From Dipteris shenzhenensis (Eukaryota), in the NCBI GenBank assembly GCA_047967505.1, contig CM106538.1: a DNA stretch of 64,000 bases. One strand, written 5' to 3'. Below are positions 4,901 to 62,321 of this stretch, piece after piece. The notes beneath the pieces are model-generated. The model did not search any database and had not been told where the DNA came from. It saw only the letters and a list, made by a program, of their open reading frames with translations. The position numbers and the translations under genes were made by a program. The first letter of the stretch is position 1. Each line of letters starts with the position of its first letter.

Positions 4901-5600
4901 CTACACCGGTCCCATGTGCAAACATTGCTGCACTCAATTCAGGCATGTCCGCATCCAACGTAAACATGCTGCCCTTCTTCTTCCCTTTTGCTATCAAGCG
5001 ACCTTTATTTTTCATATCCACAACAAAGCATCCATGAGGATCAAATCTGACTTGCAAGCCCTCCTCAAGCATCTTAGATAGACAAATGAATTTTACCAAT
5101 CTACACAGTAGGATGTGCAGTATCATCGCTAGTCTCCACAAATCCTGGTCTTTTCATTTTCCTTGCATCCTGCATCCATTCTGCATGACCTGTCATGTGG
5201 TTTGATGCACCTGAGTCAACATACCACACATCATTGCTTTCTTCTGCACTTGTCACAGAATTGGTCATGTGCTACACCATAAAAAAATGCTCATTTCTGT
5301 CATCACCCTGTCTACTAGAGGATGCATAATTGCCTTGCTGCAATTTTCCATTCATGATGTCATTCTGCTTTTTGTAGCAGTCTTTAGCCATATGACCCAT
5401 TTTACCACAGTAGTAGCATTCAACATTACTGTTTGCATTTTGACCTCGCTGCCATCCACCATGACCTCTTTGGCTCCCTCTGCCTCTAAGGTTACCATGT
5501 CCTCCTCCATAGGACTGGTTTTCTTGAATTTTCTGCATATTCTGATTTCTGCCATGGCGGTCGGCCTACTCTACCTCTGCCTCTACCTCTTCCAGCATTT
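1975..5600 (-). mobile_element. Ty1/copia element B: gag knuckle-PR-INT-RT-RNaseH, 5' truncated, frameshifted
   Basis: CYYCGKMGHMAKDC (5272-5538); WYVDSGASNHMT protease (~5190-5230); IWHKRIGH and integrase (4000-4900); RT with YKARLV, QMDVKNAFLHG, LYGLKQAPRAW, YVDD (2525-3532); RNase H with ADWAG, YCDN, RTKHIEVHYH, DQVADIF (2000-2524). PPT AAGGGGGAG precedes the LTR start TGTTGAG at 2039. Confidence 0.97.
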
Positions 5601-8316: not shown

Positions 8317-8489
8317 CATTAGGGGAGAATTGGAGTCTCAAAAGGGCCTCATAAGGAATGGATTAGTCCTAATGAAAGGGCCAAGTTAGGTCCCAAAAAG
8401 TCCTAACCCCCCCTCACCTAGGTGGGTTAAGCCCAAAAGTGACCCCACCTCTTATACCTCTTACACAACTCTTACTCCTAAGTGGGAAC

Positions 8490-9000
8490 CAAAAAATTCA
8501 AAATTCAAAATTCGAATTTTGAATTCCCTCCCTCCTCTCTCCTCCTTCCCTCCCTCCTCCCCCTCCTCACTCCCTCCTCCCCCTCCCTCCTCCTCCCCCT
8601 CCCTCCCTCCCTCCTCCCCCTCCCCTCTCCTCTCCTCCCCCTCCTCTCTCCTCTCCTCACTCCCTCCTCCCCCTTCCTCCTCCTCCCCCTCCCTCCCTCC
8701 CTCCTCCATGCTTGCTCCTCCTGCTCTCCCCCTCCCTCCCTCCTGCATGCTTGCTCCTCCTCCCCTCCCCCTCCCTCCTCCTCCACTGCTCCTCCTCCTC
8801 CCCCCTCCCTCTTGCTCCTCCCACCTCCCTCCCTCCTCCTCCATGCCTACTCCTCCTCACCCTCCACACCTGCTGGTCTGCCCCCTTTCCTCCTCTTCAA
8901 CCACTGGTCCTCCCTCCTCCATCCCTCCTCCTCGCCCTCCCTCTTCCTGCGTGCTACTCCTTCAAGCCTGCATCTCCACACCTTCTCCTTCTCTACACTC
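8490..9000 (+). repeat. Subterminal (TTCAAAA)n motifs plus a ~480-bp polypyrimidine (CCT-rich) tract
   Basis: Seen directly; its purine-rich mirror lies at ~24450-24770. Confidence 0.9.
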
Positions 9001-9008
9001 CTTTAGTC

Positions 9009-11918
9009 ATGGCACCGTTTGAGGATGTCTCCAACAAGTACCAGGTTCACTTAGAGTTGGAGGCTGAATATGCAAGCACACGTCTAGGATTAAGGGGAGC
9101 CTCCAAAATCCACAGTCTTTGTTACAAGGAAAGAAGCTTCTCGACCTTTGGGTAGAAGGATCCTTGTATCCTTTAGATCCTGCCAACCAAAAGAGGCCTC
9201 CTTTCCATACAATGCATGAGCTAGTTTAGTTTGTTAGAAATGGACATGCGGGGTTGCTTGGTCATTGCAATCAGTTAAACAATGCTCAATCAATGGCTAT
9301 GTAAGCAAGTGAGATGCACAGAGCCCAAGCAGAGATGCTAGCACATTTAGAAAATAGCACCATTGTTGCAATGCATAACTCTATGCAGCATCTTCAAAGG
9401 AAGAACCAAGATCTTCATGATAAAGCCAAAGCATTGGACTTAGAGTGAAATGCATTGGACTTGAAGTGACATAAATTAGAAGAGTCACTCTGTAAGCTAC
9501 CTGAGTCCAAAAAAGGCTTGGAAAGATCTATATACAATCAATTTCGATGAGCCGTAGAGAAGGAATGAGAGAAGGTAGAAGAATGAGTGCAAAAGATGAA
9601 AGAAACACCTTTGGGATTGAAGGAGAGGAAAATAAGGTACTTACATAACATGGATGCATTGGCACCCACTGGTGGTGCTAGAAAGAGGAGAGTCTGGGCT
9701 ACAAGGTTGGTTATCAAATGTTCCAATGAGATTACACTCTTTTGTGCTACACTATTTGTGACTAAGTTTTTATTGTGTTCTTCTTTAGGAACTTCATGGA
9801 AGATGTGATGGGAAGAACAAACGAGATGATATTGACTGTTCATATGTTCTAGCTAGTTTATTGAAGTCAAGCAATGTCATTGGGATACTAAGGGACTCGA
9901 CACAAGTTCCTACATGTGCAAGTTGCTGAAGAGGTGATGAAGGACTTCAAGAATATTGTGGATGCAAAGGAGATGCTTGCAGCTTGTGATACTACCAGTG
10001 AGAGTCGTGAAGCTTACACATCTGTTTTCAAAATTTTCAAGTTTGCTATTTTGGGAAAGTATAAGAAGCCTATAGTGCCCCTACCCACACCTTGGTCTGT
10101 GAGACGTGCATGGCAAGAAACAAACTAATGTGCAAGAGAAATTCTTGGAGGGTACCATTGCATAAGGGGCACAATGACTTGGAAGAGTAAAAAGAAATCT
10201 GGCTTGCAAACCTTTGAGATGAATGCTTTCAACAATGTCTACTTAGATGTTGAGAAACTACAACAAGCAATGGTCAAATTTTATGGCATGAGAGAAGATG
10301 GTAAGATGAAATCCATTATAGCATTGCACTTTACTTAGTTCATTTCCTATATCATGTTTATCCTAATGATTTCTCTCTTTTGTTGTACAGATTGCAATGG
10401 AAAGCTCATATTTGTCATCACAATGGATGAAGCTCAATCGATGAAAGAACACAAGTTAGAGAGAGTCACCATCTACATTATGAATAAAGCCTTAGCCTTT
10501 GTTCAAAGGAACGAAGAAGTAGAGCAAGATTTCTCAATGCAATCAGAGAAAGATATATGGTGGCTTGTAGCATTTGAGACTCCAAAAGAGTGCCATGAGA
10601 TATTGAAGTGGGTCCTAGATAGAACAGGAATCCCATCGATGATCCAAAGATAAGAGGAAGGGAAAACATTGACAGTCGATGGCCATGGAACCTTTCAAGT
10701 TGAATGGCATCTTACTAGTGATTTGAAAACCCTCAAGTGCTTGCATGGTTGAGATATAGGGGCAAATGCAATGAACACATGCCTTTATTGCATGTGTTTG
10801 CAATGTAAGCAAAAGGCTGGCTTACAATGGGAGAATGGCATTCTATCTTGTAGCCAAACGCAAGCTCCCAATTGTGATAAGAAGCATCCAAAGTGGGATC
10901 CCATCTTGCCCATCCCACTTGAGAGAGTACACATATGTACTTTACATGTAGAACTATGCGTACTTGACATGTTGTTGTATTTGCATCTTGTTTATGCTTG
11001 GAATTTAATTCCGCAAGAAGTATACGGTGCATTATAGAACCTGAGAAGTTGCTGTCAGAGATGGGATTCCATGGAGGACATGTCAAACTTAAGGAGGATA
11101 AGAAAATGTCTGGGGCAACACAGAATCTTCCTGCAAAAGTATCCATGGGTGGAGGGAAGGCAAGGAGATTCCTATCGAACCACAATATTGACAGAGACAA
11201 GTATACATCGTCTCAAAGTAGTTTGGGTTGGGAATACTGGAAAGCATTGTGTGAATGCATGACCAATAAGGCTTCTCATCCTCAAGTAGCAACTTTGAGA
11301 GCTAAAGTATGGACAAAGGTAGATGCATTGATAAAATTGCTTCGCCAGGTTCAAATCAATGAGATGTATTATGAAAGGTGTAGGATGGCAGTGAAAGAGT
11401 TTATGCAATTAATGGTGAAAGCATGGGGGGAGTCGCACATTACACATTACATGGTAATCTTGGCACCATCATAATATTTAGCACTTTTTTTTTAAATTGT
11501 TTTTGTTGCTAAAATGATTCTCATCATGTTTGCAGCATATTTTCTATGCATGTGCACGGACCATGGTTTGTACAAAATTAGGGTCCTTTGTCCATTTAGA
11601 ATACACAAGGCATGGAGAAGTCGCACTATAGAGCCAAGGTAGCCTACTTTAAGAACTCAAGGCATGGTGGTGGTGTCACTTGCAGCAATGCATTGCATGA
11701 GATGCTCGACTAGTTTTTTAGATGTTTACTAGGAAGGACTTTGAAGTCTGAAAAGGCAAAGGCATCAAAACTTGCAAAATCAATTCAAATTGTATCAAAG
11801 AATAGAAGGCATACTGCTTGGAAAGCATCCATAGGAAGTTGAGGAGTCACACATTAGTTGCAAGCTAGAGTGAGAGAAGGGAGCAGATGTCCAACCAGCA
11901 ATAGAAGCTATGGTGTAA
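9009..11918 (+). pseudogene. RAG1/Transib-like DDE transposase, 4 exons (introns 9706-9788, 10301-10390, 11454-11535), with stops and frameshifts
   Basis: FVITMDEAQ (first D); WHLTSDLKTLKCLHG..NTCLYC (second D plus CxxC); ICTLHVEL; ITHYM|HIFYA(H)GPWF..GPLSI*NTQGMEKSH (HxxxxH plus catalytic E). These are collinear with the RAG1 core motifs YDEKLVREVEGL..ICTLC, DALH and ITNYFHKTLAH..AWASEGNES. The introns have GT..AG boundaries. Confidence 0.85.
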
Positions 11919-12268: not shown

Positions 12269-12667
12269 ATGATGGGCCTATATAAAGCATTAAAAAAGGC
12301 AGACAGGAGGCCGTGAGATCATGTTTGGGTACCTATAAAGCCTCCACCAAGAGTCAAGAAGCCGTACAGAACAAAGCCAAGAGCACGGGCCCTAAGGGAG
12401 ATTAAGCAAATGTAGAAGACCGCCGACAACCTAAACTCGCATGCTCCCTTCCAATGTGTGGTACGGGAGATAGCACAGGGATACAAGTATGACGTGCGAT
12501 TTAGCATAGGATCTATGGGGGTGCTCCAGGAGGCTACGGAGCAAGTGACCATTGCTCTATTTGAGGACGCCAACTTGTGTGCCATCAATGCAAAGCACAT
12601 CACGGTCATGGACAAGGACATGGCTTTGGCAAAGTGGCTATGGAGTGACCCAAGTTTGAAGCCCTAG
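12269..12667 (+). pseudogene. Divergent, intronless histone H3-like gene with two in-frame stops
   Basis: One frame reads MMGLYKALKKADRRP*DHVWVPIKPPPRVKKPYRTKPRARALREIKQM*KTADNLNSHAPFQCVVREIAQGYKYDVRFSIGSMGVLQEATEQVTIALFEDANLCAINAKHITVMDKDMALAKWLWSDPSLKP. It aligns without gaps to H3 from VKKPHR to DIQLARR. Stops are TGA at 12314 and TAG at 12413. The start codon is uncertain. Confidence 0.93.
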
Positions 12668-13234
12668 ATTCTCTTGCAGCCCACTCTTAGTACTTAGAAC
12701 ACCCCCTGCCCTTGAAGGCACTATCTTGTATCAAAGGCCCAAGGGTCGATCTTTTTTAATAAAATATATCGACATTCTCTACACTATTGTATTGTTGTGT
12801 ATTTTCCATTTCTATGACTACAGTAACTAATCATTTTAATGTAAGTCTTGAATTTTGTCAAATCTTGAAGGAATTTCACCATCTCGTAGAACGAAAAAGT
12901 GTCTGAGATGTTGCCAAGACCCCAGAAAGCCCAAAACCTACCACAGCATGAATTTGGGCATTTTGGACTTGCGCGACTGTGAAATTCCTTTAGGATTTGA
13001 TAGAAATGAACTTTTGATACCCAGAATTGGTGAAAATGATACCAAATTGGCTATAAATGTATTAAATTAACACAATTAAAATGATGGAGAAAATATATCA
13101 TCAATGACTTAAACAAAATACAATGGAATTCATGACGAGCAATGATAACTTAAAACAAATAATAAAGACATGTAGTCATGTATCCATTGAAATATCCATT
13201 TAAATATATGTTTATATATACAAAAGGCCTCACA

Positions 13235-14766
13235 GGCTATCTTTCTTCTTGGCTAGTTCGTCTTTGAATCCCCTAGTGGATTCCTAGATATAAATTTAGC
13301 TACAACAACACTAACATCCTCCTTTGCTGCTGCCAAAGACAGCCATTACCGTCAATGCCCTGCCATGAATGTTCGATCCAAAGGCATTGATAGCAGCTAG
13401 GCGGTGTACCAAAATGACTTTGTCGGCATTTCAAGTAATGTTGGAGTATCCAATAGCACACGACAATGCCTTGCACTTCAGCAGCTCTAAAGGACCTCGA
13501 GGAGAAAATTTGTTGTGAAAGACCATGATATGCTCTGTGACTTTGCCAAGGTAATGGGCCAAAGAATGATCTCGCCCAAATGCGCTACAAACATTACTCC
13601 ATTTCGAGATGAGAATTCATCAAGCTCAAACACGTCCTGCAATAATTAAACAAACATTAGAAGACCGGCAAAATAAATTATACTAAAAGAACATCAAAAT
13701 AAAAAATATTGTTTGAACTTACCACTATAGTATCATTGGCTTCTATCCCCTCCTCATTCGCAATGTTGATGGAACCAGGTGCTGTGTGATGTTCCATTTG
13801 CGAGGTGGATGCTTTCTCCTGACCTGTGTTGGAGGTGGAAGCTTCTACATGAGAGGGTTGTGCATCGTATACGGACATGTCTGCATCCTTCATTGAAACT
13901 AGCATTGTCAAGAGAAAGTCTTCCATTGTCTGGTCTTCGGTACCTAAAACCTCGGGATCTTTGACACTTGTGTCAACATCGAACCCCGATAGGACTCCGA
14001 GTGCCTCATCTTCTTGTAGTCCAAAAAGGATCTCTATGTAATGGAGGAATACGTACTCTTCTCCATCGATGATGAGGGGGGACAAGGACCATAATTCTGA
14101 GTCTGGGTCAACGGTCTTCGATGCAGATTCTTACTCTACTAGGGGCTCTTGAAGTAGGCTCAATGCTTGAGTTGCTTCCATCTCCTATGTTGGATCGTCA
14201 AGACTCTCTTCCATGTAGATGTTCGAGTCTAGTCTAGGGATGACCAGATCAGTAGTTCTACTAGAGGTGGTGCTAGACGATGAGGCTTCTTCCTTCTTGG
14301 AGAAGGAAAATGAATGTCATCTCCCATGAAAGGAATTTGGTGCCTGTATTTCCTGTGATCCCGGTGTCTAGGATGTCTTGAACTTTGACTATCCTAAAAC
14401 CTTCATCTGTAAGGTTGTCACAAAAGTGGGCCAAGCGCTTTACAAACTTGGGTTCCTCTATGAATAGATACTTTATGTAATCTATGGGAACCCATCTCTT
14501 TGAAGAGTGGTCAAGTGTATAAGCAATATTTGAGAAATCATCTTGCATGTAAAGGATGAGATATGAGAAGTCATCCTTGGCTTGCATATATGTGCCTAGG
14601 ACATCTAAAGTCCTATCAAACACTAAAAATAGCTCTTCGTCACGATCTACAAATACAGTTCGTGAGATGAAGTCATGGAACACAGTTCTAGCTAAATCCA
14701 TGGCAAATAGCAATTGATGGAGGGAGTAACTTCTGAGGACAGAAGTTTCTATGGCTCTCTAAACAT
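13235..14766 (-). pseudogene. Transposon cargo gene of unknown function (at least 2 exons; intron ~13637-13722)
   Basis: ORFs 14273-14713 and 13678-14085, then a GT..AG intron, then an exon reading DVFELDEF..FMAGH*R*WLSLAAAKEDVSVVV. A weak remnant lies at ~22070-22340 in copy 2. Confidence 0.6.
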
Positions 14767-14981
14767 GAAAGTGAGAATGTGATGTAAAAAGGGCTCTTAC
14801 CCCTTAATATAAATCAAAACCCTAAAAATTAAAATCAATAATAAAATCCCCAAATTTTTTGAAAAACATTTACCATGAACTGAAAGGAGAAAACATTAAA
14901 AGAAATAACATTTTAATTTAATTGTCCATCATCTTTTGAAGCAATAACTAGGATTTGATGGACAAAAAATTAAATGCCGCA

Positions 14982-16254
14982 CTAGTCGAACACATTGTTA
15001 GCAATCTTTAAAGTCGCAATAGGAATGAAATTGGCACTATGCATGCACTTCTCCACACGGCGGCTGATCTTGCCACCATTTAAGGTAAAGTAGAAGGACT
15101 CTGACATGCCATCCTCCATGACCAATAGGTGTTCTCGCACATCCCTTAGAGTCCATTGCGATGTGACATTCACATTCTTGACATCTCCCTCTTCAACATC
15201 AATAGACAAACCCCCATATTGTCTTCATCATTACAGTCTAGGGGAAGCCACCGGCCATTTGTTTTCTTCTAGCACCTGTACTGAAAAGCTAAATACAACA
15301 TTTGGTGTGACAAATGGTATCTAACAACCACATTGTCTTTACATGTGTGACATTGAAACACATCACCCTTTTGGTCGCCTGACCTGGTTCCCAATTCATC
15401 CCAAGTAAATCTTTAAGAGCATTCATCTACACGCTTGCAGGACCACATAGTTTTTGTTCTATGCATATGTATATTCTGAAATAAAGAAGCAAAAAAGTGC
15501 ATAGCCATAAACCAAGATAACCTTGCCCATTTGGATCCAAATGTAAACTTCATGGTCATGCCCACATCCTTTGCAATCTTGTCCTTGTACGATTGCAATG
15601 TCCTCGAGTCCACATTGCTGCAATCCATGTCTTGAAGTTGTGGTGGTGCAATGGTTTACAGACGGCCATAGCTTGATGATGTCATTGGAGTGATGTATGT
15701 TGCATTATACCAATACACATTCTTCATTTGCAAGGAGGACAACTTCTCCCCGGCATTCATTTGCTTACCTAAATCCTCATGAATTGTAGTGAACTTGCCT
15801 ATGAATGATTCAATTGGTTCCCACTCCTCGAAGTCCAAAGGGAAAACATCTACCACCATGAATAAGAGCTCTTAAAAACCAAATACAAAATTTCCAAATG
15901 TACTCATTACACTTACAGGTGAAAAAGGTACATAGATAGAAAGGCTCACAGTGTGATGGTATCCTAGATTGATTGGAGGAAGCTACATATCTTTTCCCAT
16001 GTAAACATGTTGCACTTTTGCAAGCCATCCTTTCTTCCCAAACTTGAACTTCAAGATGCGCCCCTTCCACTCATGCAAGATTCACCTCTCTTGCTCTTGC
16101 AAAGCTTATGTGGACCTTTGGCCAATCCTTTCATTACTATCCAGTCATTTAAGCTATAGGTGCAAGGGATCCACTCATCCAATGCATTTATGGTGTTGTG
16201 GAAGACACAAGAGGTTGCAGCATTGCGTGGTCTTGTAGCCTTGCTTCTCACCAT
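14982..16254 (-). pseudogene. Transposon cargo gene: BAH-like domain plus C-terminal ubiquitin-like fold
   Basis: TYSLNDWIVMKG..EWKGRILKF..LAKVQHVYMGKDM..VFPLDFEEWEPIESFIGKFTTIH follows the BAH pattern (Y.vGD.V, w.grI, v.v.wfY, lf.Sd..d.ip.esi.gkc.v). The C-terminus KNVNVTSQWTLRDVREHL..SFYFTLNGGKIS looks like a beta-grasp fold. Confidence 0.65.
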
Positions 16255-16299
16255 GCTTGCAGAGGTTGCAACAACAAGAATGGGACTCCTACATAGGGC

Positions 16300-16516
16300 A
16301 ATGCAGTTCCAATAGAGGGACAAAAGAGGTAGAAGGAGAGGGATAGAGTAACAGCAACAAAGGCACAGGAGAGGGAGAAGGAGAGGGACAGAGTAGCTCC
16401 AATAGAGGAACAAAATAAGGTAAAGGAGAGGGATAGAGCAACAACAATAGAGGCACAGGAGAGGGAGAAGGAGAGGGACAAAGTAGCTCCAACAGAGGCA
16501 CAGGAGAGGGAGAGGG

Positions 16517-16560
<44 letters not shown>
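16300..16560 (-). repeat. Degenerate ~54-bp repeats plus (AG)n microsatellite upstream of the BAH-like gene
   Basis: GAGGCACAGGAGAGGGAGAAGGAGAGGGA units and (AG)n at ~16519-16555; mirrored at ~20193-20480. Confidence 0.85.
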
Positions 16561-17959
16561 CTATAGCAAGTAGGCCCGAGCAAGAGGGACCAAAGAAAGA
16601 GGGGGAAGAGGGAAAATGCATGGGATTTGGTTCAAACGGAGTGATTTGGCAGGCTGGACCAGAATAGTGGGGGGTAGAGGCCCTAAAAAGAGGGAGGGGA
16701 GAGAAAAATTTGCCAGAAGGTCCCTACCATCCCATTGAAGGCAGTTTTGGGCTCATGTGGGGAAGGGTTTGGTCCAACATATTTCAATCCATAGTGATAA
16801 GACTCCCTTTTAATAGAGGCCAAGAGTTGCACCCTTGAGGGTTACAATCCACACACTTGTGTACATTCTTCACCACATACTTGTTCACATCCTTAGCCAT
16901 GTAATACATTGGTCATGTTCCATGTGACACCGTTAATGAGGCCCATGCTTAATTCATGTGCCTCTTCATGTGAACCATGTGCACACTCAGATTTAACCTC
17001 TAGGTATTTCTCTACTATACTTGAGAACCATGTTTTGATAAGCAATGACTAATCCACCAATTACGAAAAGAAAAGAATCTTGATCTAGCAATTCTGTTTT
17101 TTTAAAAACTGATTACATAATTTTAAATCATTGTTTTAAATCAAGCAAGTCAAATTCCTTAAAACTCGTTTCCACTATATTGAGAAGTTTTAGAGATTGC
17201 ATATTATAAATGCCACTTGTCTACAAATGCTTTTTGGTCCCCGTAAATGTCCATCAACTCTTATGTGATAGTGTCTTTTAGCATTTCCTAAAGTTTACCT
17301 ACTCTATCTAGGCTATGTACTCTTTAAATCTTAGAGAGCTATCTGTCCATAACCCTTACTTGTTTCAACATGCCACTCATAAGTCTTCTTATGAAGGCTT
17401 CATTGGGCCTTTGGGAAAAGATAAGAGTGTATCCAAGGTAGTACAAATCAAATTCCAAATCTTGATGAGCCTTAAAAACTCATGAAATTAAATGATTTAA
17501 ATCTGATCGAGAGTGGGATGGGTTAGCCACACTCTTTAGTGGCATCTGGTTTAGCTTAACTTTGGAATTCTAAGGCAAATGTCTCCAAGTGTCCGTGCTT
17601 CCTATGCTATCGTGTTGTAGCATGCTCTCGCCCTTGCACTCCTCCCTCCTCCTCCCTCCTCCCTTCTCCTCCTCCTTTCTCCTCCCTCGTCCTCCCTTCT
17701 CCTCCTCCCTCCTCCTCCCTCTTCCTCTCTCCTCCTCAACCCTCTTCCTCCCTCCTCCTCAACCTGCTGTTACCCCCTTCTAAACCCTTAACCCCCTGAA
17801 TTTGCGAAGGAGACTAGCTCTCCACTCCTCAGCCCTACAACCTTCTCTCAACCCCAAACCTTCTCTAAGCCTTGGATTCCCTAAATAGCTTCCTCAACCC
17901 TACCCTCTTCCTACACCCTACAAACATTTTCTAGCTACACATATACCACAACAATGACA

Positions 17960-18223: not shown

Positions 18224-20189
18224 AGATTAGTCTTGCCATAGCCCTTCCCTAATCTCTTTCTACCATGCCATCATCCTCTTTAGCCCTAACCCTTATTTTA
18301 TCTCTGCTACATCCTTCTCTCAACCAACTCATCTCACTCTATTTCTCAAAACTATTCAGTTTTTTGCTTAGCTGCCTCTTTCTCCATATCTCTACTACAC
18401 TCTCTTGTAGCAACTCGGAGTGCTTTGTTAAGCTGCCTTACATATTTCAGACATGTGTGTGCATTTTATACTACTTCAAGCCTGCAAGTAGCTATTGCAA
18501 CTATTTATAGGACCAACTCTTCAGCCGTCTTGCACACGTGGGGGGTTTTATTGCATTTGCGAGTCATTTTAGGGTTGCTATTGTTGCTTGGCTTTAGGGG
18601 GTGGAGAATGCCTCATGGGGTGCTCATGTTTGACTGAGATGTAGAAGGGTGGTGAATACCCAGCTTACTATTGGCTAGGACAACGTTTGCCTCTTCAAAC
18701 TATTGGAGTCTCATAGTTTGGATCAGTTGGATTCGTCTAGAGTATGGGCAACATACACATGGATTTGGAGAGATGTTGGTGTGGTGGTTACATGGCAGTG
18801 GTGGTGAATTAGGCATGACACAATCTCATAAGCTAACTTAGAGCCTTGAGCTCCTTGCTTTTATCCAAGACCATGAGGTTAATAGTTGTCATGTCGAGCT
18901 ACTACTCATTAGTCTACTAGAGTGCCATAGTAGTGTCGTGAGTCATATATTATAAGTCCTAAAACTTAATAGAGGTGCAACCAAAGTCTTCGTGTGTTTG
19001 AGTCTTGAGTAGTGCTTTCATGGTTGATGAATATATAAACAATATTTTGAGTCCCCATTGTCTATTGTTCAATCTACTTTCCTTTTTGTTATTGACTCCA
19101 AATTATAGGTTGCTACTCAAGCTCTTTCGTGATTTTGTAATTCAAATGTGATAATGGATAGTTCATTCAAATGTGTATGTGATTGTCTCTAAAAATAGAG
19201 CTTCATATGCTAACATTCTCATGTCTTGCACCAACCTTGCTTTCTTGACACCTTGTGCTCCACCCCTCACTCTAGCTCAATTGCTCCCACGCCACACTCT
19301 AGCTCTGTTGCTCCCTCTACCACCCCCACTGCTACTTCCTCATGCATGCATACTTCTAATTTTCCTTTTCTTGAGGGGACCCATACTAGGACATCAATTT
19401 CCTGCACAAGATTATAGAGGATGAAAAAGGTTTCCTGTCATCACTCACATGAGGTGATTGATGAGCATTTACTTTCCCAAGGGTATCCAAAAAGACTGGC
19501 TATCAAGACAACTGTGCTAAGGAAGACATCTTAGAAGGAATAAGGGAAAAATATCCCTCCTAACTACGAGTTTGAGAGGCATTACATGCTTAAGCGCATG
19601 AATTATATCCTTAAACATCATAGGTAGGAGTTGAAGAAAATGAGAAAGTATTTTCTAGGGAGGGTAAGAAGAATGCACTATGGGCACATCCATAGGATTG
19701 CAAGGAGCTACTTCCATGATTATGGATGATGTAGCATTCTTTGCCCCTTAAGCATTAGGGGAGAATTGGGGTCTCAAAAGGGCCTCCAATTAGTGTTTCC
19801 TAATTTCAAGGGATTAGAGAGTGATTTGAGGTGTACCAATGAGAGTGCTAGAAGGTATGGGGCAATGGTATGTTGAGGTAGATGGTGGGCAGGCCTATAG
19901 AGAGCCCCCATTGGTTGCTCCCCTTACACTAGGGATCACCAAACCATCCCCCATCCTCTTAACCCATGTTTGACCCTCCTACCAGGTGCACCTCCCCCAC
20001 ATGAGCCCAAAACTACCTTCAATGGGATGGTAGGGCCCTTTTGGCAAATTTTTCTTCTCCCCTCCCTCTTTCTAGGGCCTTTGCCCCCCACAATTCTGGT
20101 CCAGCCTGCCAAATCACTCAGATTTGAACCAAATCCCATGCATTTTCCCTCTCTCTCTACTCCTTCTTGCTCTAGCCTACTTGTTGTAG

Positions 20190-20229
<40 letters not shown>

Positions 20230-20523
20230 CTCCCTCTCCTGTGCCTCTATTGGAGCTACTCTATCCCTCTCCTTCTCCCTCTCCTATGCCTCTATTGCTA
20301 TTGCTTTGTCCCTCTCCTTCTCCCTCCCCTGTGCCTCTATTGTTGTTGCTCTGTTGTCCCTCTCCACCCTCTTTTATGCCTCTGTTGGAGCTGCTCTGAT
20401 GTCCCTCTCCTGTGCCTCTATTGCTGCTACTCTATCCCTCTCCTTATCCCTCTTTTGTGCCTCTGTTGGAGCTACATTGCCTTGTGTAGGAGTCCCATTC
20501 TTGCTGTTTCAACCTCTGCAAGC

Positions 20524-21005
20524 ATGGTGAGGAGAAAGGCTACAAGACCACACAATGCTGTGTCCTCTTTTATCTTCTACAACACCAAAAATGCATTGGA
20601 TGAGTGGATCCCTTGCACCTACAGCTTAAATGACTGGATAGTGATGAAAGGATCGGCCAAAGGTCCACATAAGCTTCCCAAGAGCAAGAGAGGTGAAATC
20701 TTACATGAGTGGAAGGGGTGCATCTTGAAGTTCAAGTTTGGGAAGAAAGGATGGCTCGCAAAAGTGCAACATGTTTACATGGGAAAAGATATGCAGCTTC
20801 CTCCATCATTCAATCAATCTAGGATACCATCACAATTTGAGCCTTTCTATCTATGTAGCTTTTTCACCTGTAAGTGTAATGAGTCCATTTGGAAATTTTG
20901 TGTTTGGTTTCTAAGAGCTCTTAGTCATGGTGGCAGATGTTTTCCCTTCGGACCTCGAGGAGTGGGAACCAATTGAATCATTCATAGGCAGGTTCACTAT
21001 GATTC
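20524..21005 (+). pseudogene. Second, truncated copy of the BAH-like cargo gene
   Basis: MVRRKATRPHNA..TYSLNDWIVMKG..GWLAKVQHVYMGKD..VFPSDLEEWEPIESFIGRF. Confidence 0.75.
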
Positions 21006-21114
21006 TACTACAGCAACTCTTTGCTCTCCTACAGGAGCTTTTTCCCTCTTTCTTTTCCTTTTCATATAGGATACAATTGCTCTTTCCTCTCCTATAGCTA
21101 TTGTTTTCCCAATA

Positions 21115-21372
21115 GGCATGGTTTGGAACACAGTGACACAAGGTGGTAATGTTGTGAGCTCTAGTGTGTTCTAGAAGCATGGTCAAGAAGAAAGTGACAC
21201 AAGTTGGCAATATTGTGAGCTCTAGTGCGTTGTAGAGACATGGTCAGGAACAAAGTGGCCAAAGTGGCCAAAGATGGCAATATTGTGAGCTCTAGTGTGT
21301 TCTAGAGGCATGGTCAAGAAGAAAGTGATAGAAGTTGACAATATTGTAAGCTCTAGTGTGTTCTAGAACATG
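21115..21372 (+). repeat. Minisatellite, ~61-bp unit, ~4 copies
   Basis: Unit AATATTGTGAGCTCTAGTGTGTTCTAGAGGCATGGTCAAGAAGAAAGTGACACAAGTTGGC. Confidence 0.9.
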
Positions 21373-22954
21373 AAAAATGCATTGGATGACTTGAACTTAC
21401 AGATTGACTAACTAGATAATCATGGAAGGTTTTGCCAAGGGTCCACATAAGCTTCCCAAGAGGAAGGATGTATTTCTTAGACTATGTAACTTCCTTGCCT
21501 ATCTTCTTTACAAGATCCCATTTTAACATAGGAGTGGGAAGTAGTGGAATCTTTGATATAACTGACAATGGACTGTCTGTAAGTTATGTGCAGGAATACC
21601 TTTTAGTCATGGAAAATGAAATGTATATTCCTTCAACTTTACTTGAAATGGTGAAATAGCAGGCAAGAATCTAGAGAAATGCATGAAAATGTCCATTTTA
21701 TCCCTCGTGCAACATCAAACAATGTGTTTGACTAGTACAAGCTGTCCATAAATTGTAGGTTGGGCATTTTGGAATTTGCATAGGTTTTCTTCAGGACTTA
21801 GAGGACATTAAAAGCATTGATGAATTTTATTTTGATGGTTTTATTATGTGGTTTCGTGTCCAAAGTTTTTAGGTAATATGTATAAAGTTTTCATGCCTAA
21901 AGTTTTCATGTCTAAAGTTTACAGTTTATACCTGTTTGCCTTGCTTGCATCATTAAAGGAGACAATGACATGATGGTAAGCATCCTATGTATTGATTTAT
22001 ATTTTATGGTCTTTTAATATAATGTGCTTTGTTAGGTTTGCTAATCTAATGGTTGTTGAATTGATGTAGGAGGCATTTGAGATCTCTCATTGGTGCACTA
22101 TATTAGTTGAGCAGGAGGATACATTTTGGTCTTCCACATCCAACTTTTAGAATGGCCTACTTAACTATTGAAGTGCATCAAAGTATTGACATCTTGATCA
22201 TTGTGATCCACATCACATGGCTTCCGCTATTGCATTGTATCCCATTGGCAATGGTGTAAAAAACTTTGTTCTCGGCTACTCTGAGAGGAGAGCCTTAATG
22301 GTATTAGTATTAGGATCTTACTAAGTTGGGGATTTCAAAAGCCTCTTTTTTTTATGTATTAGCGGTAGCAAAGAGGAGGTATAGGCTATGAAGAGTCTTT
22401 GTATTTTAATGGAGAGATTATAATACAAAAATGTACATTTTATCACATTCTCTTCCTTGCAAGATACCATGTCATAAGCAATAATTTTGATTGAGTCATG
22501 GTTGGAATTTTGAATGTGTTGTTAATTCAATATAAGGTAATCATGTCGCCTTGAATTGTAGAGTATTGAATACACCACGTCCAAGTTTGTTCTGTAGAGA
22601 GGTGAACCTTTTAGATTCAAACTTGTCCCTTTTCCTTCATTTGTATCCAAAGTAATTACAAATTTATGACCCCCTCAACTTGTGACTGATTTTTGAAGGT
22701 CTTCTACATTGAATTTGAACATTCAAGGTTCCAATCAAATATTATAGAGCTACTCATGCTCTCGATTTTGAACTAAAAAAATTTGTAATCGAAGTTATAA
22801 TGCAAAAGTTATAGCTATTTTACTATTCTCTTCATATTCCATGCAATTAAGTTCTATTACTTGTATATATATTTTTGTAAAATTAATTTAGGAAAATATT
22901 ATGAATATTCCAAGTCAAAATAATACTCTCGACTAGGTTTGGTAATTTTGGTGA

Positions 22955-23195
22955 CCATTTTTGGTAAATGTAGGAGGAATTTGACCACGGCGCATAAGGC
23001 AAAGTTGGTCAGGACATCATGGGGTGTCCAAAAATGTACAAACCTGCCACAACACAAATTTGGCCATCTGGGCACCCTCTAGATGGCCAAATTCATGCCA
23101 TGGTGGGTTTGTGCATTTTTGGACACCCCATGATGTCCTGGCCAACTTTGCCTTCTGCGCCGTGGTCAAATTCCTCCTTTATTTGCCAAAAATGG
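22955..23195. repeat. Long imperfect palindrome (hairpin 1), ~115-bp arms
   Basis: GGAGGAATTTGACCACGGCGCA..AATTTGGCCATCT, loop 23070-23080, then AGATGGCCAAATT..TGCGCCGTGGTCAAATTCCTCC. Confidence 0.95.
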
Positions 23196-23793
23196 ACATC
23201 AAAATGGCCGAAGTTATCAAACTCCTTCATCTACCTCTTCAAAATCTATATTTCTTCATAGGAAATCATGAAGTGCATCAATCCTTTACAAGGTGATATA
23301 GTAGCCAACCTAAAAATTAAAATAAAAGATACATGGACATAGCCAACCTCCATGACTAAGAAAACATAGAAAATGAAAATTTTAGATTCCTCTTCAAAAT
23401 ATATATTTTCTCATGTAATGCATCAAATTATTTCAAGGTGATTTAGTGATATGAAATCAAATATTTCATTGACATAGCTAACCTAAAAGGTGGCTCCAAA
23501 GGCAAGATAAACAAAGAAAATGAAAATTTACAAGGTGATGTAGTGGAAGATCAAAGTCCTCTGGATTAAATTAAAAATTACATTGACCTAGCCAACCTAC
23601 AAGGTTCCTCCAAAGCGCAAGAAATTATATAGAGAATATATTACCTAAGAATCTTACCAGAGCTGTGCTACAAGGCACATAAGTTGTCATATTGACCAAC
23701 CATCATTTGCTAAGTTACTTTGTAAATATTTTCTTTTCCATGTTTATCTATGTTGAAGTTGATGCATCTATAAAGACACATGGATTTCAATTA

Positions 23794-24114
23794 GGTAGAT
23801 GAAGGAATTTGACAATTTGGGCCATTCCAATGTCCATTTTTGGCAAATGTTGAAGGAATTTGACCTCGGCACTGAAGACAAAGTTGGTCGGGATGTTATG
23901 AGGTGTTCAAAAATGTAAAAACCCACCACGATGCAAATTTGGCCATTTGAAGGGTGTCCAAATGGCCAAATTCACACCATGGTGGGTTTTTGCATTTTTG
24001 GACACCCCATGATGTCTAAACCAACTTTGCCTTCTCTACCATGGTCAAATTCCTCCTACATTTGCCAAAAATTGACATTGAAATGGCCAAAGTTGTCAAA
24101 TTTCTTCATCTACC
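23794..24114. repeat. Long imperfect palindrome (hairpin 2), ~155-bp arms, paralogous to hairpin 1
   Basis: GGTAGATGAA..AATTTGGCCATTTG, loop, then CAAATGGCCAAATT..TTCATCTACC. Confidence 0.95.
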
Positions 24115-24206
24115 CCTTCAAAATCTATATTTCTTTGTAGAAAATCATGAAATGCATCAATCCTTTACAAGGTGATGTAGGAAAATCTCAAATTTTGGTT
24201 TTTAAT

Positions 24207-24440
24207 CACTCCATCTAATCAATGTGGTGCCATGGTCAAATCCCTTCTACATATGTATTGGAATGGCCAAACTTGGCAAACAACATTTTATTGACTTGTT
24301 ACATCAAAATGTGATATAACTTTTGTGTGCAAGGTTTTTAAACACTCCATCTAATCAATGTGGTGCCATGGTCAAATCCCTTCTACATATGTATTGGAAT
24401 GGCCAAACTTGGCAAACAACATTTTATTGACTTGTTACAC
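24207..24440 (+). repeat. Tandem duplication of ~97 bp (period ~137)
   Basis: CACTCCATCTAATCAATGTGGTGCCATGGTCAAATCCC..GACTTGTTACA occurs twice. Confidence 0.9.
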
Positions 24441-24962
24441 CAAAAAGTAGGGCGGGAGGAGGAGGACACATGTGGGAGGAAAGAGGAGGAGGAAAAAGCA
24501 GCAGGGGGAGGAGGATGCATGTGGGAGGAGGGAGGAGGAGGCATGTGGACAAAGGGAGGAGGAGGGGGGGAGGGAGGAGGGAGGCAATGGGAGGGAGTAG
24601 GAGGAGGAGGAATGGGACATGTCGAAGAGGAGGGAGGAGGGAGACAAGGAGGAGGATGGGGGGAGGAGGGAATTCAAATTCAAAATTCAAAATTCAAAAG
24701 TTTGACTTTGGAGGATGGGGGGAGGTGGGAGAGAGAGGGAATTTAAATTTGAAATTCAAAATTTTGACTTTGGGAAAAGTACCCCCTCCTTGGTGTAAGA
24801 GGTGGCCCCCTCCTAGGTGTAAGAGGTGTAAGAGGTTGGATCAACTAGGCTTAACCCACCTAGGTAGGGGGGGTTAGGACTCCCTTGGACCCCACAAGAG
24901 GACTTGCATTAGGCCTAATCCATTTCTTAATCCATTCCTTATGAGGCCCTTCTGAGACCCCA

Positions 24963-27900
24963 TCCTCAAAATTTTTTTTGGGAATCCTCCTCTAGATATT
25001 GCTTACCCTTTCCCATGTTGAACTCTCTTTAAGTATATCTTTCCACTTAATAATACATCCTTGATATATTGTATATCTTGATCTGATAGTTCTAAAATTA
25101 TTTCTAGTTCATGTGGTAAGGTAACAAATTCAATGATTTTGACTAGGAATTCAATTCCAATGAGATTGTCATCATCTCATAACCTCTTTTTTAGCCTACT
25201 CACATGAAAAACTGGTTGTACTCTATATCCCTCTATTAAGGCTAAGTTGTAAGCAAGTTCTCCAATTTTCTTAAGCATTATGAATGGTCCACCATATCTA
25301 GGAGACAACTAAGATGGGAATTTACATATCTTTAGAGATTTTGAAGATTTGGGCACCCTAGAAAAGACTTTCTCATTTTCTTCAAACTCTTCAAACTCTA
25401 ACCTTCTATAATGTGGGCTTGCATAACTTCTTGCTCTATCTTGAGCCTTTCTAATGCTGCCTCTAGCAAACTTTAACATTGTATTCATATCCCCAAAAAG
25501 TCTTTGGTTGTTTGAACCTTTTATTTTTGGAGTCCCACTACAATCAGGGCTCTAGGTCGAAATCCATACACCCAATGACTTGATTGACCCTATCTTTATG
25601 AATGACCATCTCTATTTAACCATCTCTTTGTGGATGATCTGTGGTCACCCTGTTCATATTCAATGTAGCTTCCAAGCTCATATCCAAAAGTGAATTTTAA
25701 ATTTGCTATCTTCATCACTCACAATACTAGTTGGTAGCCCATACAATGTATTGATATACTCCATAGATAGCCTTGATAATTATGGAGTTTAACCTCTTCA
25801 GTGGTTGGAATAAAATGAGCAATCTTGGTCAAAGGATCCATGATTCCCCACACAACGTCATGCCCCCTCTGTGTCCTAGGCAATCCAATAAAAATACATG
25901 GAAATATGCTTTCCCATGTTCTAGGTAATCCAATAATAAAATACATAGAGATATGCTTTCCCATTTCCTAGATGGGATCTCCAAGGGATGTAGGAGGCTC
26001 CTACCTTAAGGGGATTCAACCTTATTGACCAGGAATTTTAGGCACTTTAATACATAATCTTGGATGTGTTTATTAATTCCACATCAAAAGAATTGCATGC
26101 ATCTTTTGAATTCTTGGGTGTCTAGCACTCAACTATCATGACACTCAAAAAGAATTTGGTGCCTAATATCATTATTGCTGGCATACATACTCTGCCCTTA
26201 TAGAGAAAGTAGCCATCTTCAGCAGTATATTTTTTCCATTTGAGCCCTTTATCACCTGTGGTGTATCACCATTTCCATGTGACTCCATAATGAAAGCTTC
26301 ACAATTTGTTGGATCCCTCCTCATAATTGCTTTCCATATTTCAAGAAAGTGAGGATCAAACTCACATTTTTTGTTTAAGGACTCTAGGAAATCATTTTGG
26401 AATTGAGTTAAGATCAATTAATTAACAATTAGCGTTCGACTTACGGAGTCTACTACCACGTTGAACTTCCCCTTCCAACATGTCAATTGGATATCAAATT
26501 CTTGCATCATTTCAACCCATCTAGCTTTTCTTCCTTTAAAATTTGGTTGATTGCAAATCGACTTAATGCTTTCTTGATAAAAAGTGATCTAGAATTTGGC
26601 ACCATATAAATAATGCCTCTATTTCTTTAAAGCGTGAAGTATGGCATACAATTCCTTCTCGTATGCTGACTGCAAATTGACTAAATGCTTTCTTGATAAA
26701 AAGTGATCTTGAATTTGGCACCATATAAATAATGCCTCTATTTCTTCAAAGCATGAAGTATGGCATACAGTTCCTTCTCGTATGCTGAGTAATTATGTTT
26801 GGCATGGTCTAGCTTCTTGCTTTCAAAAGCCACTAGTCGACCCTTTTGTTAAAGTACCACCCTAATAGCAAAATGACTAGCAATTCTTTCAACCATAAAC
26901 GGTTCATTGGGATCCCTACGTATAAGACATGAGTTGATGCTATAACCACTTTTAATTTTTCAAAACTCTTCTTTTGAGGTTCATCCAATATGAAGGTACT
27001 TACCTTTCCATTGGCATAGGAATCTTAGCATATTTTTGGATGGATATCCTATAAAATCCATTCAAACGTAAGAATATATGTATCTCTTGTAGTTTTGTAG
27101 GATGTGGCCACTACAATATGGCCCTTACCTTTTCAAAGTCCATATAAATCCCTTTTTGGGATATAATATGTCCTAAGTGTTTTACATCTTTTGCAAAGAG
27201 TTCACATTTGGATTATTTAGCAAAAAGAGTGTTATCTCTTAGCAATTGGAAATTTTACTAAATATGGCTCAAGGCATTGTTCATAAATGTCATAAAAGTT
27301 ATTGGACAATTTGTTAAACCAAATGGCATTACTCTAAACTGATAATGCCCATACCTAGTGCAAAATGATGTCTCTCCTTTAATTTGCATTTAGTGATATC
27401 TTGAACTTACTTCAATTTTAGTGAAATACATTTCCCATTGCAATTAAAGATAGCTCATTAATTCAGGCATATGAACTTATTTTTTATTGTGACTTTATTT
27501 AAATCTTGATAATTTATGCATAAAAGCATAGTACCATCGTTTTTCTTTACCAATAAAACTAGTAAGAAACAAGGTCAACTACTTGGTTGAATTTGGCCCT
27601 TCATAAGATATTTAGTTAATTTTCTTTCAACCTCAAGTTCTTCCATTTGACTAAGTCTATATGGGGGTTTAAAAACAAGGGTATATCTAGGAATTGTCTA
27701 TCTTATGATCTACTTCTCTCTTGAGGGATAAACCATCATGCAAATCGGATAAAAAACATCTTTAAATTCAACCATTAAATCATGAAAGAAGATTTATACT
27801 TTTTAACATTATCAAGAACAATTGTACGTCTTTCATGTGAGGAAGAGATAAAATAACCAAAGAAAGTAAGTTCACAAAGATATACCTCGCATTCTTATTG
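24963..27900 (-). mobile_element. Highly decayed Ty3/gypsy (chromovirus-type) pol: RT-RH-INT-chromodomain remnant
   Basis: The minus strand reads [17 protein letters not shown] (~27310-27360), KHLGHIIS, AYEKELYAILHALK (~26630-26780), ISMYFIIGLPRT..LTKIAHFIP (25719-25964), PRYGGPF and [11 protein letters not shown] (~25190-25300). Confidence 0.9.
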
Positions 27901-58600: not shown

Positions 58601-58889
58601 CATTCATTGGTATAATAGCTCCATTGACATTGTCCACACAACTCATTGATTAGGCTTTCCAACAAACAACACTACCCAAAGCCTCATAGACTAAGAATGC
58701 ATCCATTGTAGGAAATGGAAGAAGTGCACTTTCATCCATACAAATATCGATCGCCACCGATACATTATTTTCTCCCAAGGGCACACCTTGGCACATGTCA
58801 TCATGTGATGTAGAGAATATTGTCCCAATGGCAACAATCTTTCCACTGACAAGCAAGTTGACTTTAACCCCCACTTTCAATGTGGCACC
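55682..58889 (-). pseudogene. Large DUF7869-type (Sola-like) RNase H-fold transposase candidate, ~1070 codons, with two N-terminal Tnp1/En-Spm-like beta domains
   Basis: Eight ORF-track pieces join into one reading frame with a single frameshift near 57500. Motifs: IVAIGTI..QGVPLGENNVSVAID..LLPFP..GSVVCW; CCKQNC; NGIQVCCRAW..HGI; HGNKG; FSKCGLC; IHDKMDQKK; LQLDNCGSENKN; FLMVGHTHEDIDAMFS. A splice acceptor lies at ~58890. Confidence 0.8.
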
Positions 58890-58939: not shown

Positions 58940-59682
58940 GACTGGCTACATGGCCAAATCTTCACAGACCATGGTGCTTTGAAAGGGAGATAGCAAGATT
59001 TGTCCACACTACCAAATCTTCCGAGACACTGGTGCTTTCAAGAAGCCATCAAGATTTATCCACACATCCAAATCTACTTAGACCTTGGTGCTTTGAAAGA
59101 AGCCAAATCTCCACATACCCTGGTGCTTTGAAAGAAGCCCACAAGATTTGGCCACATGGTCAAATCTCCCCAGACCCTGGTGCTTTGAAAGGAGCCAACA
59201 AGATTTGGCCACATGGCCAAATCTCCTAAGACAATAGTGCTTTGAAAGAAGCAATAAGATTTGGCTACATGGCCAAATTTGCTCAGACCTTGGTGCTTTC
59301 AAAGAAGCTAGCAAGATTTGGATGCACGGCCAAATCAAGACCTTGGTGACTTCTTTCAAAGCACTGAGAAGATTTGGTTGTGGTGTTCTTTCAAACTTGG
59401 GGAGATTTGGTCGTGTGGCCAAATCTTGTAGGCTTCTTTCAAAGCACTAGGGTATGGGGAGTTTTGGCCGTGTAACCTCCTCTTGCATGCTTCTTTCAAA
59501 TCACTAGGTTTTGAGAGATTTGGCCGTGTGGCCAAATCTTTCAAAGCATTAGGGTTTGGGAAGATTTTGCCATGATGCCAAATGTTGCTAGCTTCTTTCA
59601 AATCACTAGGAAGATTTGGCCACATGGCCAAATCCTCTTTCAAATCACTAGGAAGATTTGGCCACATGGACAAATCTTCAAA
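58940..59682. repeat. Left palindrome array (~45-57-bp units), orientation flips at ~59345
   Basis: Core AGATTTGGCC-N4-GGCCAAATCT. The linker is TGCTTTGAAAGAAGC up to ~59340, then its reverse complement. Confidence 0.95.
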
Positions 59683-60374
59683 CGTTAAATTTAAAAATTG
59701 AAAATCCGAATTTTAAAATTTAAAATTTAAAGTTCAAAATTCAAAATTCAAAATTTAAAATAAAAAATTCAAATTTGAAATTTCAAAATTTAAATTTCAA
59801 GTTTCAAGTTTCAAATTTTGAAATTCAAATCTAGAGATCCTACTTTTAAAAAATTCGTACATGCTTTTCATGATTCACGCTATTACACTTTAAAATCATA
59901 TTATTACTTTAAAAGCAAACCAGAAAATCTAAAACTATTAAAAAACCAAAACTTTAAAAGGCAAAGCTAAACAAACCTTTTAAACCAAGCATAAAAAGTA
60001 AACCTATGAGAAGGAATTGAATTCATCTTCATGGGGGATCAAGTGCTAGGCTTACCTTGTTCTCTCCCTTCCTAGATCTCAAATGTGTAACTAGGGTGGT
60101 TTGAGAGCCTTAGGACAATGTCTTAGATGGGGTAGTTCTTGGAAAACACTCCTCCACCCTTGGTTAGCTAATTGCAAGCAAAAAAGTTTAAAACTATGTC
60201 AAAATAAGAGGTCTCGGGAGGCTCCCCATCCTAGTTTTGTCCTAACAGTGTGCACTTAACTATGCAGGTTTTAAACTTCCATTACCGATTCAACTCTCCA
60301 TAAATTCCACATGCAATAGTTGGATTAGAAAGAGGTCCTTTTTTTTTTTTTTTTGGCTCTACATTTCCCTCGGT

Positions 60375-60612
60375 TCTCCTTCCAATCCTCTGGATGAAAT
60401 CCTTTCTCCTGTTACACAAAATCCCCTCAATTCTGCTTCCACTCCTCTGCTGGATGAAATCCCCTCTTGACACTCCTCTCTCCTGGCCAATCCCCTCTTA
60501 TATGAAGTGCCCCCTCCATCCTTCTGCCGCTCCTCTCGATGAAATCCCCCTCAGTTCTCCTTCCACTCCTCTGGACGAAATCCCCTCTCCTCTTGCACGA
60601 AATCCCCAATTT
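60375..60612 (+). repeat. Degenerate minisatellite (GATGAAATCCCC core) in the central spacer
   Basis: About 6 copies of GA(T/C)GAAATCCCC-like motifs with CTCC-rich linkers. Confidence 0.8.
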
Positions 60613-62285: not shown

Positions 62286-62321
62286 TACTATGTCTAGAGT
62301 CAATTCTAGATTCTATTTTAG

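Follow-up and report, generated by a model that had tools for sequence, protein, structure and literature searches.

The minus strand of positions 16254-14982 in a 64,000-nucleotide stretch of Dipteris shenzhenensis contig CM106538.1 (assembly GCA_047967505.1), hereafter called the window, was confirmed to hold a gene copy that is full-length but decayed and corresponds to a protein of ~400 amino acids; such a gene has one intron and a product of about 380-410 amino acids. The window is plant-like, repeat-rich DNA, and a second, partial copy of the same gene is found within it. We give roughly even chances to the explanation that positions 16254-14982 carry a defunct member of a multi-copy gene borne by repeats, namely the open reading frame (ORF) for a BAH-like reader of a Ty3/gypsy-type retrotransposon. 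A first-pass annotation had assigned the gene to a DNA transposon, in which a BAH-like chromatin reader would partner a transposase. The gene itself and the notion of a chromatin reader on a mobile element survive, and the element is more likely to be a retrotransposon with long terminal repeats (LTRs) than a cut-and-paste transposon.

The family to which the gene belongs was found by searching 1.84 billion representative proteins with phmmer, using as the query the intact first exon of the second copy (P0001, 89 amino acids). This search returned 44 proteins at E<=1e-3, including 11 at E<=1e-10 and one at E<=1e-30. The 44 relatives are clusters at 50% identity and are mostly short ORFs from Logan or ENA contigs; two of them, P0030 and P0062, are ORFs from the transcriptome of a fern, Pteridium aquilinum, and are spliced across intron 1. 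Two full-length relatives were obtained, P0013 (412 amino acids) and P0036 (594 amino acids, from a 29-member cluster of ~2.2 kb contigs). In tblastn comparisons with the window, both are colinear with the whole pseudogene in frames -2, -1, and -3, with sum E values of 2.5e-46 for P0013 and 3.5e-26 for P0036. The same landmarks occur in the same order in the pseudogene, P0013, and P0036: the N-terminal barrel, W-E-x-[IV]-E-S, FGSK, G-[DE]-V...RY..RQ, and W-[TS]-L..[DE]-V-R...F.F..N-G. The gene family is thus shown to be real and to be present in many assemblies and in fern transcripts. It has no Pfam model, and full-text literature searches found no paper on it. Word-based protein searches returned nothing for P0001 among longer proteins and only the query itself for P0013 among proteins of near length; scans of metagenome contigs with P0036 and with a close N-terminal alignment (A4) found no relative, and a search of the ESM Atlas with the whole of P0013 gave no usable match.

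The first copy (14982-16254, minus strand) was delineated from its ORFs, from the colinearity of the tblastn matches, and from a hidden Markov model (HMM) of the family. The gene is present where the first-pass annotation had placed it. The ATG starts at 16254, the TAG stop occupies 14984-14982, and the string WEPIESFIGKFTTIH is found within the ORF at 15656-15871. The family HMM matched this copy at 16054-16560 (E 1.5e-14) and at 15986-16081 (E 2.1e-12). The coding sequence contains two frame changes, a 1-nucleotide deletion near 16083 that shifts the frame from -2 to -1 and a second change near 15225, together with four in-frame stops, which follow GKDM (15985-15983), GRL (15658-15656), ECS (15415-15413), and YRC (15271-15269). 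This copy is dead and without function of its own. Contigs of four sequencing runs from three organisms cover positions 14900-16290 (35, 32, 67, and 93 contigs, respectively) at 85-99% identity, with several variants at each place, and some of them retain the 1 nucleotide and the 7 nucleotides that are deleted in the first copy. Because of this variety, and because some contigs are free of these deletions, the family is multi-copy and the lesions are particular to the first copy.

Exon 1 of the first copy (15950-16254), which was aligned with the 44 relatives, encodes the N-terminal five-strand, BAH-like barrel and a short tail. Its probable end was placed by using a conserved xCK in the relatives that marks translation through the donor site. 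Many of the relatives terminate in this xCK directly behind VQHVY... (C in 32 of 37 sequences), and it corresponds to a GTAAGT donor translated in frame. Unspliced ORFs of the relatives read into the stretch that follows, and the Pteridium transcripts P0030 and P0062, together with P0036, skip it. One intron was therefore proposed for the first copy at 15949-15850; as read from the letters alone, the putative intron is 100 nucleotides long, runs from GTGAGC to TAG, and is in phase 1. Among the contigs of the four runs that cover the gene, none spans this putative intron as joined exons. Exon 2 (14982-15849) is colinear with residues 130-393 of P0013 and residues 300-591 of P0036, and contains the WEPIESFIGKF motif, a middle region (FGSK; GDVFQC...RYH), and a C-terminal WTLRDVRE...FYFTLNGG piece. 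The gene is preceded by a leader (16255-16766) with a conserved part at 16561-16766 and, as the earlier annotation had noticed, a CT-rich part, which occupies 16290-16560 and is made up of a (CT)n run and 45-nucleotide repeats. Two long minus-strand ORFs of 150 and 161 amino acids (13681-14758) lie directly downstream of the gene and have no Pfam or NCBIfam match.

The second copy (19991-21005, plus strand) consists of the leader, an intact exon 1 (20524-20790), the intron, and the start of exon 2, and was matched by the family HMM with an E value of 3.2e-36. The retention of the 5' half of the gene at 20524-21005, claimed from the first reading of the DNA, was borne out, since the identity to the first copy is 93% in each of exon 1, the intron, and the start of exon 2. 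Over the entire 19991-21005 segment, the identity to 16766-15781 is 86% over 1023-1028 nucleotides, and the leader at 19991-20523 is 81-91% identical to that of the first copy. The two copies lie 3.2 kb apart and are inverted relative to each other. Behind the second copy, and absent from the first-pass annotation, there are 61-nucleotide tandem repeats at 21096-21372, followed by diverged remnants at 21383-21735, which include an exon-1 piece (21383-21466, 80% identical) and a C-terminal piece (about 21540-21735) that shares NNVFD-stop with the first copy and has its stop at 21733-21735. The substitutions between the two copies are distributed as 5, 6, and 7 over codon positions 1, 2, and 3, respectively, and the exons are not better preserved than the intron, which argues for neutral drift of both copies.

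The structure of the protein was modelled with AlphaFold2 in two ways. Model 1 was built for P0013 from a 42-row alignment and model 2 for the homologous 404 residues of P0036 from 41 rows. Fragments from the window were excluded here, as MAFFT aligned them wrongly with the dense block at the N-terminus. The mean predicted local distance difference test (pLDDT) score of model 1 is 52, with residues 10-90 at 88-96 and arranged in five strands, and model 2 is confident only for the same N-terminal barrel (roughly residues 10-85, pLDDT 81-96). Both models thus predict with confidence that the N-terminal 85-90 residues fold as a five-strand barrel. When model 1 was searched against 48,161 PDB representatives, 12 BAH or BAH-containing entries were found for the N-terminal domain, and the first five of these hold ranks 1-5; the further BAH entries include MET1, DNMT1 BAH1, TNRC18, ORC1b, ASI1, PBRM1, and ZMET2. 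Solved BAH domains are the best structural match to the confident barrel in both models. A comparison of ESM features for residues 1-100 of P0013 gave the BAH set for 27 of the 30 named matches, with a top score of 0.90 and 185 of 256 features shared. A resemblance to BAH is favoured because one family tops the fold lists of two models and because a method that uses no structure agrees.

The best-kept residues of the barrel (P0013 numbering) are N19, W27, W37, P42, G46, W62-K63-G64, F69, and V81-Q82-H83-V84-Y85. Among these, W27, W37, W62-K63-G64, and Q82-H83-V84-Y85 may form a putative binding pocket, with W27, W37, W62, H83, and Y85 as candidate residues for contact with a methyl-lysine or another histone ligand. 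The strongest family motifs, HWKGRI and VQHVY, stand at what we take to be the cage positions of BAH readers, a placement that no structural alignment supports. Only 5-7 sequences span the second half of the putative BAH domain, where the WEPIESFIGKF strand lies, and this half was modelled with pLDDT values below 65. Since it is thinly covered and poorly modelled, the domain is called BAH-like and not a member of the BAH family. The label put on the protein in the first-pass annotation is partly supported, in that the predicted fold resembles BAH domains consistently but weakly and family membership does not follow. We infer that the barrel is probably a divergent BAH-type chromatin-reader module. 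The Pfam search proposed with the original annotation found no family at all, BAH (PF01426) included, for the exons in the window; at E<=1 it found none for P0013 and none for the family-like portion of P0036, and a search of PDB sequences with P0001 found nothing at E<=10.

A small barrel beside a retrotransposon pol could also be derived from the C-terminal SH3 domain of an integrase (GPY/F type), in which case it would bind DNA or integrase and not histone marks. The gene adjoins pol, and the Pfam family MLVIN_C matches 2 of 41 family members, the better of which is P0028 with an E value of 0.001 and 19.1 bits. By eye, the layout D-W-V...H-W-K-G-R-I...V-Q-H-V-Y also resembles the G-D-x-V...P-R-Y-x-G-P-F...V-F-H-V-S of the integrase SH3 domain encoded at 25180-25308. 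However, 19.1 bits is below the Pfam cut-off of 29.2 bits, SH3_Tf2-1 matches none of the 41 members (no score passed the thresholds applied for PF18697 and PF24626), and alignment of the family to the integrase SH3 of the window with hhalign gave a probability of 0.1%. Among the 1613 ORFs of at least 25 amino acids in the window, the family HMM misses this SH3 domain and finds only the family's own copies. Moreover, BAH chains, and not integrase chains, top both N-terminal fold searches, and BAH clusters top the ESM feature search. An origin of the barrel from integrase SH3 is therefore considered to be quite unlikely.

The C-terminal region was described in the first-pass annotation as beta-grasp-like and ubiquitin-like. 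The WTLRDVRE...FYFTLNGGKIS pattern is retained in P0013 and P0036. A strand-strand-helix-strand-strand order, as in a beta-grasp fold, is found at the C-terminus of model 2, where the confidence is low (pLDDT 30-50), and it is not found in model 1 (pLDDT 56-67). No ubiquitin-like family in Pfam was matched by 14985-15224, P0013, or P0036, and no PDB sequence matched the last exon at E<=10.

The nature of the element that carries the gene can be addressed from a 20-mer, TGGGGTCTCA[A/G]AAGGGCCTC, that occurs three times in the window, at 8331 (+), 19767 (+), and 24962 (-), against 0.00 expected occurrences. The occurrence at 24962 (24943-24962, minus strand, TGGGGTCTCAGAAGGGCCTC) starts a unit related to 8331-8814, with 66% identity between 24962-24441 and 8331-8814 over 552 nucleotides. 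It is preceded by a decayed Ty3/gypsy chromovirus pol on the minus strand (24995-27697), which was recognised with Pfam and ends 29 nucleotides before the 20-mer. The pieces of this pol are RVT_1 (27261-27389, E 4.7e-6), RT_RNaseH (26741-26848, E 5.7e-9), the integrase SH3 domain SH3_Tf2-1 (25180-25308, E 7.2e-13), and a weak match to Chromo (24995-25108, E 0.0094). Its RNase H region also carries a 119-nucleotide tandem duplication at 26548-26785. The minus strand thus reads, in order, reverse transcriptase, RNase H, SH3, weak chromodomain, stop, 29 nucleotides that end in a purine run, and the TG of the 20-mer. This order is that of a chromovirus pol 3' end with its polypurine tract and, behind it, the beginning of an LTR.

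The same signature was found, in part, ahead of the second gene copy. The LTR-type start of its unit (19753-19786, plus strand) consists of the purine tract CATTAGGGGAGAAT and the 20-mer TGGGGTCTCAAAAGGGCCTC, and a 30-nucleotide piece that matches the above pol 3' region at 97% lies 107 nucleotides upstream in the same relative orientation. The third unit starts at 8317-8814 (plus strand) with the same tract CATTAGGGGAGAAT ahead of 8331, the 20-mer with one position changed, and then a subterminal part that leads into a tract rich in CT, after which an ATG is found at 9008. A purine tract directly abuts the TG start at all three of the 20-mers, and 8317-8350 is 97% identical to 19753-19786, beyond which the two do not match. 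Related LTR families share the tract and the first nucleotides and diverge directly thereafter. The series of pol, purine tract, and TG start in one orientation is present at 24962, whose unit lacks the BAH-like gene, and partly in the unit of the second copy. An ORF at 9008-9154 (plus strand), which starts with MAPFEDVSNKYQVHLELEAEY 3 nucleotides behind a pyrimidine tract ending in TTTAG, repeats the layout seen at the BAH-like gene, and its product matches nothing.

The 20-mer was read as the start of an LTR because a pol 3' end and a purine tract precede it, because the units diverge after it, and because there is no duplication at 19767 and 24962. Since the gene lies behind pol, the purine tract, and the LTR-type TG start, it would reside either in a long U3 (the 5' part of an LTR) or between pol and the 3' LTR. 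The gene is thus probably an accessory ORF, in the sense orientation, of a Ty3/gypsy chromovirus-like LTR retrotransposon. The ATG of the second copy is 757 nucleotides downstream of its 20-mer. The pyrimidine tract ends in AG just before each ATG, as TTTAG-TC-ATG at 9003-9010 and CTGCAAG-C-ATG at 20516-20526. A working splice acceptor in the leader fits the junction in P0036, where RadA exons are joined ~17 codons upstream of the usual start codon of the family. ORFs of relatives that enter from upstream (P0003, P0007, P0011, and P0025) translate S/L/P-rich leaders, and P0003 retains the same leader as the window copies.

The 20-mer had been interpreted in the first-pass annotation as the terminal inverted repeat of a cut-and-paste DNA transposon. 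Such an element would have two convergent genes that begin from its ends, one for a transposase (9.3-11.7 kb, plus strand) and the other for the BAH-like protein as its partner. In accord with this, the 20-mer at 19767 is inverted relative to that at 24962, both sets of ORFs begin behind CT-rich leaders, and both candidate elements pair an end of the BAH-gene type with an end of the 8331/24962 type. This last pairing was rejected as evidence for terminal repeats, as chance gives it in four of six arrangements. A simple insertion at 19767 and 24962 is excluded because the outer flanks are inverted copies of the gypsy pol 3' end and purine tract. There is no target-site duplication at these positions (AGAAT vs TCCTC), and the 20-mer is absent from the first copy, the second being the only one of the two gene copies to have one. 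A candidate inverted terminus behind the stop of the first copy (AAAAGGGCTCT at 14787) was also rejected, with four matches against 3.67 expected and none behind the second copy. The putative transposase ORFs at 9.3-11.7 kb have no match in Pfam, NCBIfam, or PDB sequences (none below E 0.1). No relative of a 168-amino acid ORF from this set was found among longer proteins in a word-based search, which is weak evidence, as neither an exhaustive search nor a fold prediction was made. In addition, the 8.3-16.8 kb segment is a mosaic that includes a fragment of histone H3 and an unrelated repeat. The histone fragment is isolated and lies at 12416-12667 on the plus strand (Pfam Histone, E 4.3e-17, profile positions 50-118 of 122). 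A cut-and-paste transposon is therefore very unlikely, and neither the terminal repeat nor the transposase partner of the earlier annotation was upheld.

It could also be argued that the gene belongs to an ordinary host family, with the two window copies being a decayed local inverted duplication that came to lie near retrotransposon pieces by chance in a repeat-rich genome. The inverted placement of the copies 3.2 kb apart would fit such an origin, and the 29-member cluster of P0036 resembles an expressed cellular transcript. Against this stand the many distinct variants, 85-99% identical, that each run contains in all three organisms, the 44 clusters at 50% identity that come mostly from short contigs, the leader shared with a relative (P0003), and the start motif of the second copy's unit, which is common to two other units within 64 kb. 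A host gene family is regarded as highly doubtful.

A BAH-like reader carried by a retrotransposon must also be weighed against a number of observations that speak against it. With respect to the domain, none of the 41 family members matches Pfam BAH even at E<=10, the family profile finds nothing among PDB sequences at E<=10, Foldseek returns nothing at E<=1e-3, and confident modelling does not extend past the first half of such a domain. With respect to the element, no direct LTR pair, primer-binding site, or target-site duplication that would bound the element of the ORF was found in the window. No direct-repeat partner was found within the window for 19767-21750, 16766-14950, or 24962-24441. 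The absence of an LTR pair is only a weak negative, given the age of the units (8331-8814 and 24962-24441 share 66% identity) and the shortness of the window. A candidate integrase N-terminal motif upstream of the first copy was not confirmed by Pfam or tblastx, and nothing pol-like was found upstream of 8317. Finally, both window copies are dead, which counts against the proposed role.

A mechanism can be proposed for the intact element. The gene would be expressed from the pyrimidine-rich leader, or by means of a candidate splice acceptor whose end lies immediately ahead of the ATG, and the resulting subgenomic message would give rise to a nuclear protein. The BAH-like barrel would then bind a histone mark and so link the integration or the silencing state of the element to chromatin. 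It might tether the integration complex to marked chromatin, or it might bind a silencing mark in order to blunt silencing; it would not be the partner of a DDE transposase. Within this proposal, the barrel and its context come from the results given above, and what it binds, how it is expressed, and what it does are conjectural.

The proposed system can be compared with several that are already known. The plant BAH histone readers (AIPP3, EBS/SHL, and ASI1) and the BAH domains of ORC1, Rsc2, and DNMT1/MET1 are similar in that the barrel superposes best on their first 75-80 residues in two models. In contrast, the window family has no Pfam BAH match, its second half is not confidently modelled, and it is multi-copy and repeat-borne. 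Its protein is also short and lacks a PHD, bromo, methyltransferase, or ORC part.

In LTR retrotransposons of plants, accessory ORFs in the sense orientation are known to lie between pol and the 3' LTR, and a review reports that some of these, as in Bagy2, are expressed by splicing (PMC7264820). The window gene is like the env-like ORFs described there in that it lies behind pol in the same orientation, is present in several units, and has a possible acceptor just before the ATG. Those ORFs are mostly transmembrane, occur in Athila/Tat-type elements, and have no known domains (PMC7264820). The window protein, unlike them, is soluble-looking, has a reader-like barrel, is encoded beside a chromovirus-type pol, and begins behind a TG start, so that it may lie inside U3.

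Mobile elements read chromatin through domains linked to their enzymes, such as the chromodomain of the chromovirus integrase and the PHD finger of RAG2 in the domesticated V(D)J recombinase. The chromovirus chromodomain, which probably guides integration to chromatin that bears marks, is likewise a small chromatin-reader barrel on a Ty3/gypsy element, a function that is putative for the window family. It is, however, fused to integrase, whereas the window barrel heads a separate protein of ~400 amino acids that comprises two further regions. The pol that neighbours the window copies retains a chromodomain remnant as well. With RAG2 and with mudrB of MuDR, an accessory chromatin-binding or helper protein is encoded beside a recombinase. 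The likeness to these is conceptual, as the window gene has no verified transposase, no PHD finger, and a retrotransposon context. In mouse mammary tumor virus (MMTV), the sag ORF lies inside the U3 of a retroviral LTR in an animal. If the TG of the 20-mer is a true LTR start, then the window ORF would similarly begin 757 nucleotides into an LTR; the two proteins are unrelated.

No paper that ties a BAH domain to a transposon-encoded protein was found in full-text searches, which returned mostly listings and abstracts. What would be new here is a retroelement accessory ORF with a reader-like domain, such accessory ORFs being already known as a kind. If the proposal is true, a separate BAH-like reader on a plant retroelement would constitute a new way to choose a landing site or to resist silencing, and it would supply a testable biochemical function for the additional ORFs in LTR retrotransposons of plants, which are poorly understood. 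The family is useful for the annotation of large fern-type genomes, as it is conserved, unnamed, ~400 amino acids in length, and has one confident barrel domain.

The full-length relative P0036 is a chimera in which an N-terminal part of ~190 amino acids with a RadA/Sms-type zinc ribbon (TIGR00416, E 6.4e-7; PF18073, E 2.6e-5) precedes the whole BAH-like module. A chimera of this type looks like the exonisation or domestication of a repeat copy. Its cluster includes P0046-P0059, of which P0047 and P0048 carry the RadA part alone. A more far-reaching proposal is that ferns and related plants harbour a Ty3/gypsy lineage with a free-standing histone-mark reader of its own, a divergent BAH-type barrel that heads a protein of ~400 amino acids. 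Expressed from a subgenomic spliced message, this reader would steer integration or protect its element against silencing. A copy would, in at least one species, have been spliced to the first exons of RadA and kept as an expressed chimera (the P0036 cluster). We regard this larger scenario as rather unlikely.

Other elements were also identified in the window. A set of fairly intact minus-strand ORFs at 55685-58649 belongs to a transposase-like element with matches to DUF7869 at 56579-56965 (E 2e-40) and 56969-57562 (E 2.2e-4); literature searches found no mention of DUF7869. Kinship of the 9-12 kb ORFs with this element (55.6-58.7 kb) was considered and rejected, as it amounts to one 55-amino acid tblastx piece that contains a stop and shows no colinearity. 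A Ty1/copia element occupies 2003-5565 on the minus strand, with reverse transcriptase at 2528-3553 (RVT_2, E 2.8e-79) and integrase-like and CCHC gag-like ORFs that were recognised by eye. Direct and inverted copies of a repeat of ~330 nucleotides, 79-84% identical, are found at 22938-24180 and 12838-13041, and a translated relative of this repeat lies within the 9-15 kb stretch. Tandem units of 136 nucleotides are located at 24197-24448. The segment from 58940 to 62300 is a satellite-like array of 47- and 57-nucleotide units in both orientations (families D2-D5, D9, and D11; inverted pairs I11-I20).

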